From a virus (Duplodnaviria > Heunggongvirae > Uroviricota > Caudoviricetes), in the IMG/VR virus record IMGVR_UViG_2636415477_000006, positions 1 to 18,348 of that record: DNA of 18,348 nt; one strand, given 5' to 3'. Position 1 is the stretch's first letter. Each line of letters begins with the position of its first letter. Positions 76 through 12,402 of the stretch are shown piece by piece. Under the pieces are notes generated by a model that was not told the DNA's origin, did no database searches, and saw nothing but the letters and a program-made list of their open reading frames with translations. The position numbers and the translations under genes are program-made.

Positions 76-372
76 TTATACCTCTGAATCAATATTAATT
101 TGGTGACGGGCGATGGTTTCAGCCATGTAGCGGATGTGTTCTGCCATGCGTTCCTGAAAATCGACATCGTCATCAAATGCACGGGAAATAGCTTTTTTGC
201 TGGCCCCGTGACGTTGCAGATTATCGATGCATAGCGATTCAAACAGGTGTTGGGGCAGACCTTTTTCCAGGTCGTCTGCCAGCTCAGCTTCAGTTTCTTC
301 ACGGGCAATTTGCTGGTAGTGTCGTGCCCATGACTGCTCTTCAATGCGATCGGGGATAAGCCAGGCATTCAT
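76..372 (-). CDS. gam: Gam host-nuclease (RecBCD) inhibitor, short GamS-length form, 98 aa
   Basis: 98-aa ORF is near-colinear with the lambda GamS sequence as I remember it (…QSWARHYQQ…[13 protein letters not shown]…LQRHGASKK…[12 protein letters not shown]…); start ATG overlaps the stop of the upstream gene (ATGA); lies directly upstream of bet. Confidence 0.85.
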
Positions 373-2441
373 GATTTATCACCTCCGAAATTTTCAAGCC
401 TGTTGGCAATCATGATGGCGATATCAGGGATTGCTGGCGCTGTGGCTATACATGCGGGGTTGGCGCACAAACCATAGACGGCGGCAATCACGAGCTGTCT
501 TTTCCAGTCGAGAGTTACTGGCTCAGAATTGGCGTCATCGCCGGACGTATCACTGCCTGGCTCGTTCTGAACAACGGTTTCGCCCTCCTGAGCGGCATCA
601 ACAGAGTTTTCCTGAATGATCTTCTCCTCAGTTTGTGCTGAGTCTTCTCCATCAGCGGCGTCATTTTCTCCAAAAGTTTCTGTGTAAGTGCTATCGCCCA
701 TTACCGCACTACAGTCAGGGCAGTTACCCCCGCCAGTCTGACCACAGACGCGGCAGTTTTTTTCCAGCTCCGGTTGCGCTACTGGCCCTGGCTGTTGCTC
801 TTCTGACCCGTTTTGTTGCGTATCCGGGCTGTTTTGTCCCGCTTCTGGGGCAATTTGTTCCACTTTGGACTGATTCTGGTCCTCAGTGTCGCGAGTCTGG
901 ATCCCCTTCACCCACTTCGGATCAGCAGGGTTACTGATGCCTTCAACGAATTCTCCACGCGAGGCAGCCAGTAATTTGTCGGCATCGACTGGATTTTTTG
1001 GGGGGATGTTTTCCCTGGCTTTATTGAGTTCCTCCCTCAGTTCCTGGTATTTCGTTTCTACAGATGAGACATTTTCCAGTGATTGCGTGTCCTCATTATG
1101 TTTAACTGGAATTTCTTCCACTGATTCAGGCGCTGCCTGTTCATTAGCCATTGTGTCCGATGCTTGTTGCTTTTCTTCATCGCCATGTTTTCCTTCTGCT
1201 GTTCCGCGCTGCGGCATCGGTGCTGATGAGCGACCGCAGGCAATTTCCACGATTTCCGGATCCGGGTTAGCGTGATCGGTTTCGGTCAACACTTTGTTGA
1301 GATATTCAGTCACGCGTGCCGGGATGGCCTCAATGCCGATTGGTGCTTCTTTCACGGAAGCCACCACAATGGCGCGGGAATAATCCAGCCCACCGGGCAT
1401 GGCGATAAATTTGTCGCGAAAAACAGAAAAGGGCGGCTTATTCTCTGACACGATTTCTTCAACGCGTTTTGCGTGTGCTGGGTGCAGGTTATAAATATCC
1501 ACATCCATTGAACGGGCCAGAACGCCGGTGGCTACATCTCGTGCGAGTGATGTCTTATCATGTTTGAATCCTTCACCACGATCGGTAAGATTTCCGCCGC
1601 CAGCGTTAGCACCGGAAGGCGTACGGGTAATGCCTGAAACATAATTTCCGTTCTGCCATTCTTTTGTCAGCAGGCCCTGATCAAGGTAGTCAGTTTTCAT
1701 CCAGGTGGAAATGAACTTGTCGAATTCAGCCGGGCTGATGCGATGATTTGCAGAGTGGGGGAATGCTTTCCCTACAGATTCAGCCAGGCGACTAAGGTGA
1801 TAGTTCGTCAGTTTATCCAGTTCATGATGTGCGGCGCGCACAGCAGTAAGCAGGCTCTGAAGGTAACTGTCCTCTGTGTCCATCTCCATACGGATCACGT
1901 TATTGCGTTGTTCTGGTGTGGCGTGATGCCGGTATTTTCCATCTTCATCTTTGCTGAATAAGAAGAGGTGAAGGAAGCGATGAGTAAGGCTCAGAGTGGC
2001 GACGGGAATTTCACACTCAGAACAGTCATCGTCGCTGTCCGGGGATTCGCTTTTCTCCACATCATCCGGAATAGTTCCGTCCAGGTTATCGTTGTCATCG
2101 CCAGCAGTTGTGGCATCTTCACCGTTGATGTTGTCATCGAAGGGGATAGCCATCATGGTGATGCCATCGTTACCGCCTTTTTCATAGCGGTTGCAGAATT
2201 CAGTATCAAACACGCCTTCCGGTGGAAGGTCATTCACGACGGGGAAATTTACGCGAACGGGTTTTTTGAAATCATCCTCGTCGTAGCCTGCATCGTCCAT
2301 GGCTGCAATGCAGCGGGAAACTGCGACAGAAAGTTTTCTGGCCTCGGTCCAGAAAAAACCGCCTTTGATGCCAAGGCGTTTTCTGACTTTATCGTTTTTT
2401 GCTTCGCAGTGTAGTGCAAAAGTCTGTTTATCAGCGCTCAT
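369..2441 (-). CDS. Large acidic 690-aa protein, possibly related to the non-nuclease N-terminal region of RecE (exonuclease VIII); Cys4 zinc-ribbon-like motif (CRVCG…CPDC) near C-terminus; no recognisable nuclease motifs
   Basis: Long ORF with SD-like AGAGG 10 nt upstream of the ATG at 2441; Asp/Glu-rich low-complexity stretches; a central [16 protein letters not shown]…[13 protein letters not shown]…NLHPAHAKR segment that I associate with RecE; translationally coupled to gam. Confidence 0.5.
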
Positions 2442-2517
2442 TGTATTTAAACCTCTGGCTGGATTAGAATTAGCGGCCCTTTGTCTGATTTCTCCGAATA
2501 CGGTGACGCAGGGAGAA

Positions 2518-2550
2518 ATCCGGTAGCCTGCGCTGCCGGATTTTTATTTC
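2518..2550. terminator. Hairpin with T-run on plus strand and U-rich tail on minus strand; likely terminator after the 128-aa moron gene
   Basis: ATCCGG…CCGGAT outer stem with inner GC-rich pairing, followed by TTTTTATTT on plus strand; on minus strand it lies immediately after the stop at 2549. Confidence 0.4.
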
Positions 2551-2935
2551 AGTGGAAGGTTGCCTGGTTTGCTGTTTTGTGAGTTGTTTTTCCCTTTTCG
2601 TGCTGGCATTCAGGGCAGTCGCACTCGGAATTTTCTCTTGCAAACTCAAGAGCCTGCGCCAGTGTATGGATTTGTTGTACTCCAATGTTGCTTCTGACGA
2701 CTTCACGTGCAGCATGAATATATGGGCTTGGTGTTTTGCCATTTAACCCACATAAAACAAAACGACTGTCCTTATATTCGTTATTTCCAACTTCTGTAAG
2801 CACTGAAAAAGAAAATACAAAGTCGATTTTGTATTCTTTGCATATTTTACTGATGCGTTCTGCAATTTCTTTGAGTTCATTTATTGCATCAGGACTGGTT
2901 TCGGAAAATATTTCATTTTGCGCAAGTTCTTTCAT
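2549..2935 (-). CDS. Hypothetical 128-aa protein with C-terminal Cys cluster (ECDCPECQHEKGK); AT-rich moron-like gene
   Basis: ORF in a locally AT-rich segment (about 2750..2950); weak SD (GGAAAAA) upstream of the ATG; followed by hairpin at 2518..2550. Confidence 0.5.
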   Translation of the reverse strand: MKELAQNEIFSETSPDAINELKEIAERISKICKEYKIDFVFSFSVLTEVGNNEYKDSRFVLCGLNGKTPSPYIHAAREVVRSNIGVQQIHTLAQALEFARENSECDCPECQHEKGKTTHKTANQATFH

Positions 2936-3018
2936 TTTGATTTTTCCGTGATTGATAATTAATGCGGTTTTATTTCGGCTTGTCTGTTACAGATATGGAA
3001 GGTGTATTTTATTACTCG

Positions 3019-3240
3019 TCACAACGACGCTGCTTTTACGGGTAAGCCATCGCGCCCGATGAAAACTTTAATCATGCAGTCGGTAATGCATGTTTTTGTT
3101 GTGAAGTTACGAATATAGAGTTTTCTCTTTTCAATATTGTTTGCTGAAGCGATATATGTCCGACCTTCATGAAGAACATAATCGCCAGGCGTCACGCACT
3201 GACGTGGTATTTCATCAGTTCCGAAGTGATGAGCAATCAT
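3019..3240 (-). CDS. kilR: KilR-like small killing protein (Rac prophage FtsZ inhibitor family), 73 aa
   Basis: Start at the internal ATG at 3240 has a GGAGA SD 6 nt upstream; the product [35 protein letters not shown]…[13 protein letters not shown] matches my memory of Rac KilR in sequence and length. Confidence 0.6.
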
Positions 3241-3696: not shown

Positions 3697-3906
3697 ATGA
3701 CACAAGAAGAAAAAGTGATGTTTCTGATGCGGCTGGCTGTCGATACTTACAACACACAATTTACGGAGAAAGATATACCTCAAAAGGCAGTTCCTGCCGC
3801 GGTAGATAAGGGCGGTGCTATTGCCGTATTTTACGATGCATTTGAATCATTTTTTAATGAAAAACTCGACGCTGTTAGCGACTTCGGAACATCGAGTAAT
3901 AAATAA
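3697..3906 (+). CDS. Hypothetical 69-aa protein, plus strand, antisense to the leftward operon
   Basis: Strong SD AAGGAGAG 6-7 nt upstream of the ATG; acidic helical-looking product; 3' end overlaps the convergent ORF 3875..4234 by 32 nt. Confidence 0.45.
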   Translation: MTQEEKVMFLMRLAVDTYNTQFTEKDIPQKAVPAAVDKGGAIAVFYDAFESFFNEKLDAVSDFGTSSNK

Positions 3907-4234
3907 CGTTCATTACGGTTCTTAAACAACAATCAGTGGGCTTGATGTTGTTCTTTTCAAGCTCACTTGCCATCACTTCCATTATTCTTGCACTTACACG
4001 AATTATTTGGTGGCTGTAAGCGACGCAACTGTCGCTGATATTGCTGTTTATTTCTATTACTTCATTTTCACTGGCGGCGCTAAATTTGGATATGCCGTTT
4101 CCATTGTCCTGTTTCAGTGCTGTTTCCGCTATCCGGATGCGTTCCTGCGTTGCGGAATTTGGGCTAAGTCGATAAACCTGTCTGGCATCTTCCAGAAGCA
4201 GGGCGATAATGTGCTTCAGTTCTGTTTCATTCAT
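3875..4234 (-). CDS. Hypothetical protein, about 119 aa (start chosen at MNETELK)
   Basis: ORF with GGAG 7 nt upstream of the ATG at 4234; no recognisable motifs. Confidence 0.4.
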   Translation of the reverse strand: MNETELKHIIALLLEDARQVYRLSPNSATQERIRIAETALKQDNGNGISKFSAASENEVIEINSNISDSCVAYSHQIIRVSARIMEVMASELEKNNIKPTDCCLRTVMNVIYYSMFRSR

Positions 4235-4371
4235 AGTTAACTCCGGTAGTTGCAATTTATTAATATCAGGCGGTCAGCTCTTTAAGCTTCTGAACTGCTT
4301 TATTCATTTCATCCATACAGTCGATGAATTCGTCCAGTTTAAGCTGCATTTTTCCGGCGGCCTGAAGAATT

Positions 4372-5674: not shown

Positions 5675-6382
5675 TTACCAGCTATGTGATGACCAGAACA
5701 CTCGCCCTATGATTCTTACGTTTTTGTAGAATTCTTCTCTGTTCATTACTTCATCAGGATACTCTTCGCGGTTTATCGATCTGATAATTACCGATGTTGG
5801 CGTGGCTATGAGCGTTTTTACCCTTAACAAATCAGCTTGGCAAATTGCATATGTTTTACCATCCCTGATGCTCGTATCTTGCGTGTTTACCCCCACCACA
5901 TCACCATCATGGAGTGTTGGCTCCATGCTTTGCCCAACAACCCTGACCAACTTTGCCGCTTTTTCTGGAACTCCCATTTTTTTCAGGTAATAGCGCCTAA
6001 AAACTAGAGAGAATTCTGCGGACTCCTCCAATGCACAACTTCCTCCGCCAGCTGAAAGTGAAATATTTAGAAGGGGGAGCGCAACAAATTCGTCATTATC
6101 ATTTTGATGATCATCCCAGGCGATAGCTTTTAAAGATGATTCCCGAGCATTAGATGGCTCTTCTGCGCTCTGTGGTCTCATTGACCCTATACCAGAGCTT
6201 AGCCATTCAGGGCGAACTCTTAACGCGTTGGCTAATTCGACCATTTTACGTGATCCGGTTGTTTTACCAGATGACATCTTTTGTATGGCTGGTTGTGATA
6301 CCCCCACCATGTCTGCAAGTTGTGCTTGTGACAACCCGGCTGAACTCATGGCGGCATTTAGTCTTTCTGCGAATGTTTTCAT
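5675..6382 (-). CDS. cI: CI-type prophage repressor: N-terminal XRE-family HTH plus C-terminal S24 (LexA-like) autopeptidase domain, 235 aa
   Basis: N-terminal …LSQAQLADMVGVSQPAIQKM… HTH; Ala-Gly-type cleavage region (LSAGGG); GQSMEPT serine motif; divergent from cro across an operator-rich intergenic region. Confidence 0.9.
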   Translation of the reverse strand: MKTFAERLNAAMSSAGLSQAQLADMVGVSQPAIQKMSSGKTTGSRKMVELANALRVRPEWLSSGIGSMRPQSAEEPSNARESSLKAIAWDDHQNDNDEFVALPLLNISLSAGGGSCALEESAEFSLVFRRYYLKKMGVPEKAAKLVRVVGQSMEPTLHDGDVVGVNTQDTSIRDGKTYAICQADLLRVKTLIATPTSVIIRSINREEYPDEVMNREEFYKNVRIIGRVFWSSHSW

Positions 6383-12125: not shown

Positions 12126-12241
12126 TTGACGACAACACATATCCGGGATTATATTCTTCGCACGCCAGCAAAATCTGGCGTCGGGATTAGGAACCCCGGA
12201 TAGAAACCGCGACAGAGACACGCCGCGAGCGTGTTTTTTAT
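12126..12241 (+). ncRNA. Candidate small RNA or terminated leader: promoter TTGACG-17-TTATAT (12126..12154), about 80-nt transcript with hairpin CGCCAGcaaaatCTGGCG and intrinsic terminator (12218..12241)
   Basis: Near-consensus -35/-10 with 17-bp spacer; two hairpins; terminator ACACGC-cgcga-GCGTGT followed by TTTTTTATT; no ORF is involved. Confidence 0.35.
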
Positions 12242-12402
12242 TGTCGTATGCACACGCACATCTGAATTATGGTGGGGCGTATAGGGGAGCTGAAAAGCTC
12301 GCCGGTTGGTTTCCCGGTAGTTCCTAACCCTGTACGTCTCGCCACCCGATGATTAGGAACCTGACGGTGGTGATAGTTTAGAAACCACTCGAGGGCGTCA
12401 TT

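Follow-up and report, generated by a model that had tools for sequence, protein, structure and literature searches.

The early-left (pL) operons of lambdoid phages include a number of small accessory proteins with which the gene described here can be compared. RacC of the Rac prophage: this 91-aa cytoplasmic protein (NCBIfam NF007306), itself uncharacterized, is encoded directly upstream of a recE-type gene and downstream of kilR or kilR-ydaE, the order in Rac-type phages being kilR-ydaE-racC-recE. Kil, Gam, cIII and Ral: these are non-essential accessory proteins of the same operon, among which Kil inhibits FtsZ and Gam inhibits RecBCD. Abc1 and Arf of phage P22: these assist Erf. They are encoded by small early-left genes beside recombination genes and their molecular function is unknown (PMC12315714). 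The YnfU-family proteins and YdaE: these small, Cys-rich, zinc-binding proteins come from lambdoid prophages of E. coli, and the gene of the latter is a neighbor of ours in some relatives.

The gene we report here, ORF128, comes from a lambda-like prophage of E. coli; the window, by which we mean the whole stretch of DNA analyzed, is 18,348 nt long (Table 1). RacC is the closest of the above systems, and the two are positional analogs without homology; as models of function, Kil, Gam, cIII and Ral and the P22 proteins Abc1 and Arf come nearest. Their genes take the same position in the same operon and orientation, share the flanking spacers and the hairpin preceding recE, and both code for small cytoplasmic proteins. 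RacC, however, has no Cys cluster, and it pairs with nuclease-bearing RecE as well as with RecE-2-like genes, whereas ORF128 pairs with one RecE-2 lineage only. BLASTP of ORF128 against RacC and YdaE gave either no alignment, as for RacC, or one with E = 5.7, and hhalign against RacC, YdaE and DUF1482 gave probabilities of 0.1-0.2% (0.2% for RacC). A diverged ydaE-racC fusion, considered as a possible origin of ORF128, was rejected on these comparisons and on the co-occurrence of ydaE and ORF128 in six loci. Kil, Gam, cIII and Ral resemble ORF128 in operon, size class and non-essential accessory status, and kilR and gam flank it within about 2.5 kb; this analogy is by context only, there being no sequence relationship. 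Homology of Abc1 or Arf to ORF128 appears in no library, and ORF128 borders the Rec module without being embedded in it. YdaE, a member of a different family (NF041288), is not similar to ORF128. The YnfU zinc-binding family (NF038384) matches the tail of ORF128 weakly (13.3 bits with the window protein, 18.2 bits with P0018; E = 0.0014-0.046), over the C-terminal 26-31 residues only and below the 36-bit family cut-off; proteins of the YnfU and YdaE kinds lack the 100-residue domain of ORF128.

Table 1. Features of the window, with positions counted from its first letter
Feature	Position	Strand	Remarks
gam	76..372	-	overlaps the stop codon of RecE-2
RecE-2	369..2441	-	690-aa RecE-family protein; downstream neighbor of ORF128
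Hairpin	2516..2543	stronger on +	abuts the ORF128 stop codon; conserved in relatives
T-run	2544..2549	+	antisense to ORF128
ORF128	2549..2935	-	128 aa, ATG start; 14.5 kDa, pI 5.7; PHROG 2016, without family of known function
Spacer	2936..3018	-	83 nt, AT-rich; from kilR stop to ORF128 start
GGAA	2944..2947		weak, Shine-Dalgarno-like; 8 nt before the ORF128 ATG
kilR	3019..3240	-	Rac-type Kil, PHROG 294, NF008465; upstream neighbor of ORF128
69-aa ORF	3697..3906	+	WP_000189938.1, hypothetical
126-aa ORF	3875..4255	-	
cI-like repressor	5675..6382		leftward of it: N-like gene, kilR, ORF128, RecE-2, gam
IsrK	12162..12239	+	Hfq-binding sRNA, 69 bits
C4 antisense RNA	12265..12349	+	66 bits
STnc100, first copy	16118..16309	+	sRNA family, 145 bits
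STnc100, second copy	16585..16794	+	sRNA family, 138 bits

ORF128 is very probably a real accessory gene of the pL operon. The initial annotation had placed a 128-aa ORF between kilR and a RecE-like gene, as is indeed the case, and the N-like gene, kilR, RecE-2 and gam all lie on its strand, as does bet, which in relatives follows gam together with exo and int. The N-like gene of the window is about 90% identical in DNA to N of mEpX1 and weakly matches N_peptide. Within this minus-strand operon there is also a plus-strand ORF of 69 aa, listed in matching genomes as the hypothetical protein WP_000189938.1, whose end overlaps convergently with that of a minus-strand ORF of 126 aa; no Pfam family matches either of them.

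As for composition, the AT-rich island described at the outset holds for the 5' two-thirds of ORF128 (35.5% GC) and for the upstream spacer (32.5%) but not for the 3' third of the gene, which has 47% GC. Positions 2549-3018 as a whole have 38.3% GC versus 47.7% in the window, placing them in the lowest 1.3% of 470-bp windows, and the GC3 of ORF128 is 0.33. The nucleotide composition of this stretch differs from that of its surroundings, i.e. it is foreign.

Among the sequences we gathered there are 29 intact full-length alleles of 128-130 aa, and both the start codon and the region of the ribosome-binding site show conservation. When the window allele was codon-aligned with four diverged ones from public assemblies, dN/dS came to 0.19-0.27 for the deep pairs, at dS of 0.8-1.0, and to about 0.5-0.6 for closer pairs. 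These values clearly point to purifying selection and conservation as a coding sequence, the property whose absence was to have told against the gene. Could ORF128 nevertheless be a spurious or decaying reading frame without function? Its hypothetical annotation, its homologs in a single lineage and the failure of AF2 to fold it would be in line with this; it is scarcely credible, given a dN/dS well below 1 at saturating dS, the many intact alleles, the retained start codon and ribosome-binding-site region, and a core (residues 36-84) in which 26 of the 49 columns are invariant across the 29 alleles. Among 38 viral contigs the only degraded copy is that of IMG/VR contig L135 (3501-3740), a truncated version with residues 49-128 only and with no kilR detected upstream.

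By its distribution ORF128 is confined to the lambdoid prophages of E. coli and Shigella, a narrow lineage. Of 5,426 complete E. coli genomes 81 contain it, in each case chromosomally and in one genome as two copies; the carriers include the O104:H4 outbreak lineage. Six phage records, representing four phages, contain it: PhiR5_2, phiSTEC1589-Stx1c, Shigella phage 75/02 Stx and POCJ13. For PhiR5_2, GenBank entry PV340546, the recorded host is MG1655. When 5.8 billion proteins were searched by word index, 26 ORF128 clusters came up with identity down to 59%, and all those with a named source are from E. coli. No relative was found in 185,579 GTDB species-representative genomes. An exhaustive profile search of 1.84 billion representatives recovered only the family itself and P0027, a 412-aa tandem-repeat protein matching in four weak stretches, which we judged to be spurious.

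The family is already catalogued but unstudied. PHROG 2016, of unknown function, matches ORF128 with E = 2.2e-78 (residues 1-128, over all 128 positions of the profile), and RefSeq lists the protein as WP_016238038.1, a hypothetical protein; we found no literature on ORF128, PHROG 2016 or this accession. Pfam, NCBIfam and PADLOC gave nothing above threshold. The initial annotation, which could name no family, was right in this respect, PHROG 2016 being the only family given by the profile libraries, and homology to housekeeping or phage structural genes, against which it had set its reading, did not appear. Below threshold, DUF1281_C (PF18406), the ferredoxin-like domain of Api92-like proteins, aligns with residues 26-64 at 14.8 bits (E = 0.028; gathering threshold 22.8 bits); similar weak matches are seen in 8 of 16 alleles, with a best E of 0.0042, and constitute a lead only. 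In a profile search of the PDB the designed WD40-like protein Ika8 (E = 0.0055) was set aside as a repeat-driven artefact without any individually significant domain. Structure prediction, which the initial annotation had proposed as a check, was run twice with AF2 and yielded no usable model (pLDDT 47.7 with the window allele as query and 54.0 with a 130-aa allele). The models are all-helical with low confidence, and a Foldseek comparison of the better one with BFVD and the PDB gave best E-values of about 1-3, which are meaningless.

The initial annotation regarded ORF128 as a self-contained moron. A moron, in the sense of Hendrix and colleagues, is an autonomous transcription unit between two genes with its own promoter and terminator. 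ORF128 resembles one in its distinct composition and in that its flanking genes are adjacent in some relatives (L015, L066, L070 and L086, see below); a promoter and a coding-strand terminator of its own were not found. No sigma-70-like promoter was detected on either strand between positions 2300 and 3500 (0 versus 2.0 expected by chance) in a consensus-only scan, which weak or non-sigma-70 promoters could escape, and the conserved spacer blocks upstream of ORF128 form no -35/-10 boxes. The hairpin with a T-run at which the gene was said to end does exist beside its stop codon, but the T-run is antisense, and hence this is not a canonical terminator for ORF128. Read on the ORF128 strand, the stem (-15.6 kcal/mol) is interrupted by a C.A mismatch, and the letters after it are UUUCUCCC, without a U-tract; on the plus strand the 13-bp stem is free of mismatches (centroid -20.3 kcal/mol), with TTTTTATTT coming next. 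A terminator scan called it on neither strand. In Rac, the racC-recE spacer forms a corresponding hairpin at this position (about 3440-3490 of L002), with a different sequence and the same orientation bias; hence, the hairpin belongs to the backbone upstream of recE and not to the insert. On account of both the strand orientation and this commonality with Rac, an intrinsic terminator of ORF128's own was rejected. Taken with its T-run, the element at 2516-2549 looks like a plus-strand intrinsic terminator antisense to the pL operon; we found neither a plus-strand gene nor an Rfam RNA for it to terminate.

Rfam searches identified no RNA family in or near the ORF128 locus. Elsewhere in the window two copies of the STnc100 sRNA family lie about 470 bp apart, upstream of a gene for a SASA-family esterase, and the sRNA IsrK is adjacent to a C4 antisense RNA; this latter pair adjoins a RelE/ParE toxin-antitoxin pair annotated in the matching genome (L136, 11769-12408).

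A true moron, transcribed in the lysogen from its own promoter and benefiting the host by superinfection exclusion, defense or virulence, would account for the AT-rich foreign composition, the absence from close relatives, the carriage by pathogenic lineages including O104:H4 and Stx phages, and the hairpin beside the stop codon. We consider this improbable: beyond the promoter and hairpin results above, the gene has the orientation of the pL operon, backbone spacer sequence reaches as far as its ribosome-binding site in relatives with ydaE, inspection of the product showed neither a signal peptide nor a transmembrane segment, and PADLOC-DB gave 0 families even at E <= 1. As that library holds defense systems and not anti-defense proteins, the last result does not test the idea of an anti-defense role. 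The self-containment claimed for the gene was accordingly abandoned.

What, then, is the nature of the position that ORF128 occupies? The synteny comparison suggested with the initial annotation bore out its expectation, in that otherwise syntenic relatives have this slot empty or differently filled. Beyond the Rac-type order given above, the following arrangements are seen: the Qin-like prophages, with dicB-DUF1482-exonuclease; the loci L048-L056, with racC in the slot upstream of RecE-2-like genes (56-60% identity) that are followed by gam; and L015, L066, L070 and L086, in which the slot is empty and kil adjoins a gene for an exonuclease with the RecE N-domain. In the 38 IMG/VR contigs ORF128 is preceded by kilR in 31 and by kilR-ydaE in six, the remaining one having the truncated copy. 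In L026, L032 and L124-L129 (IMG/VR), where ydaE lies between kilR and ORF128, the latter starts with GTG.

DNA alignment allows the ends of the exchanged segment to be located. Its right end lies just 3' of the kilR stop codon (~3005), where Rac-type homology stops, and its left end at the pre-recE hairpin. L125, which has kept ydaE, also has the Rac-type ydaE-racC spacer, extending as far as the ORF128 ribosome-binding site. By these segment ends and the L125 spacer, ORF128 is a coding-sequence-for-coding-sequence alternative to racC: it has taken the place of that gene and uses the signals of the backbone. The presence of ydaE beside ORF128 in some relatives shows that exchange at the ydaE position is independent of that at the racC/ORF128 position.

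Within the predicted protein the core is polar and strongly conserved, with the motifs FSFS.LTE, YKDSR and SPYIHAA, and the N- and C-terminal helices are more variable. The C-terminus features a CxCxxC motif, followed by a K/T-rich tail with the conserved end KT(A/T)N..(F/L)H-COOH, in which the terminal His is invariant. Sequence inspection revealed neither a signal peptide nor a transmembrane segment, and ORF128 is predicted to be a soluble protein. The ECDCPEC motif reported earlier is present as E104-C105-D-C107-P-E-C110; of the cluster that it was taken to represent, C107 and C110 are invariant in the 29 alleles, but C105 is F, Y or G in some. H74 and H128 are likewise invariant, C32 is found in 28 of 29, and every allele has either C62 or C66 but never both, an alternation that between the two haplotypes is effectively one evolutionary event. 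These conserved Cys and His residues hint at a structural metal site, for which they would suffice, such as a zinc site of the Cys4 or Cys3His kind.

A catalytic alternative is suggested by D38 and K55, which are invariant and, by our own motif reading with no tool match, have a 14-residue spacing suited to a minimal PD-(D/E)xK-like nuclease (D38 ... E53-x-K55). Such an enzyme could supply the activity that its neighbor RecE-2, having lost its nuclease domain, lacks. This is very improbable: E53 is Q in the 130-aa alleles, searches of Pfam, NCBIfam and PHROGs gave no nuclease family even at E < 1, the AF2 models, of low confidence, are all-helical, and a gene for lambda Exo lies just downstream in relatives, so that no nuclease is missing. 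An ADP-ribosyltransferase R-S-E motif was likewise rejected upon our own inspection, the motif order being wrong and the protein too small.

The strict coupling with RecE-2 calls for closer consideration. ORF128 is directly upstream of RecE-2 in 55 of 55 loci, comprising 38 IMG/VR contigs, 11 assemblies and six phage records, and the length of RecE-2 across these loci is 682-700 aa. It is followed by gam wherever the contig reaches, and in the assemblies and the annotated genome also by bet and exo. The RecE-2 of the window matches positions 1-598 only of the 877-position exonuclease VIII model; hence, it lacks the nuclease domain. Cys clusters occur in this protein as well, DDCSEC at about residue 150 and another at about residue 575. 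It corresponds to the 'RecE-2' of Zheng et al. (2025; PMC12315714), who noted its roles as unknown.

This unbroken linkage would also fit a function in the Rec module, i.e. ORF128 as an accessory subunit or regulator working with the nuclease-less RecE-2, much as Abc1 and Arf of P22 do with Erf, and not against the host. In the same vein, 17 of 18 loci with the RecE-2 subtype of the window and an available upstream region carry ORF128; racC, the alternative occupant of the slot, is likewise always joined to recE or recE-2-like genes; and the spacer with the conserved hairpin and the recE ribosome-binding site is common to both. However, in IMG/VR contig L023 (244-3072) a RecE-2 with 97% identity to that of the window has dicB and DUF1482 upstream and neither ORF128 nor kilR, which argues against an obligate partnership. 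In that contig the gene for the cell-division inhibitor and the next small gene appear to have been swapped as a pair. Further, kil directly adjoins other genes for RecE-N-domain exonucleases in the empty-slot loci, a young gene in a narrow lineage is expected to show tight linkage anyway, and ORF128 evolves faster than RecE-2. We therefore regard a role in the Rec module as rather unlikely.

Instead, we tentatively place a host-directed role of ORF128 first, as a possible though by no means assured reading: a small protein that may act by binding, in host takeover or anti-defense. This ranking follows from the evolutionary pattern, which fits an arms-race accessory protein: ORF128 has the highest dN of the block (~0.2, versus 0.03-0.12 for kilR, RecE-2 and gam, with kilR and gam at 0.03 and RecE-2 at about 0.1), its alleles are visibly mosaic, the occupants of its slot alternate and its composition is foreign. 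Only position and evolutionary pattern enter into the argument for such a role. The simplest reading of its expression is read-through from pL, as no promoter or terminator of its own was detected and it is co-oriented with the N-like gene, kilR, RecE-2 and gam. ORF128 would then be transcribed by N-antiterminated read-through early in lytic growth, like kil and gam. The product would be a small soluble cytoplasmic protein with a fold probably stapled by a metal site, the candidate ligands being C32, C62 or C66, C107, C110 and possibly H74 or H128. It would act by binding another protein and not by catalysis, most likely in host takeover or counter-defense, by analogy with Kil (FtsZ), Gam (RecBCD), cIII and Ral. 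A bolder extension is doubtful: that with ORF128 a new fold or family begins, of metal-stapled early phage proteins with a specific cellular target, be it a host immune or repair factor (which would make it a new anti-defense protein) or RecE-2, whose function it would help to define, and that the racC slot is a general hotspot at which lambdoid phages swap such effectors.

In sum, ORF128 looks like a small exchangeable accessory gene of the lambdoid early-left operon, i.e. ordinary swappable cargo, and as things stand it counts among the hypothetical accessory genes already listed in catalogs. Should the host-directed reading be true, the position upstream of recE-type genes would be a compact exchange slot for small effectors, filled by racC, ORF128, DUF1482 or nothing, and ORF128 would be a candidate effector in clinically relevant prophages, among them those of O104:H4 and the Stx1 phages of E. 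coli and Shigella. That it is so strictly linked to RecE-2 may also offer a handle on the role of the nuclease-less RecE, a question left open in the 2025 survey (PMC12315714).
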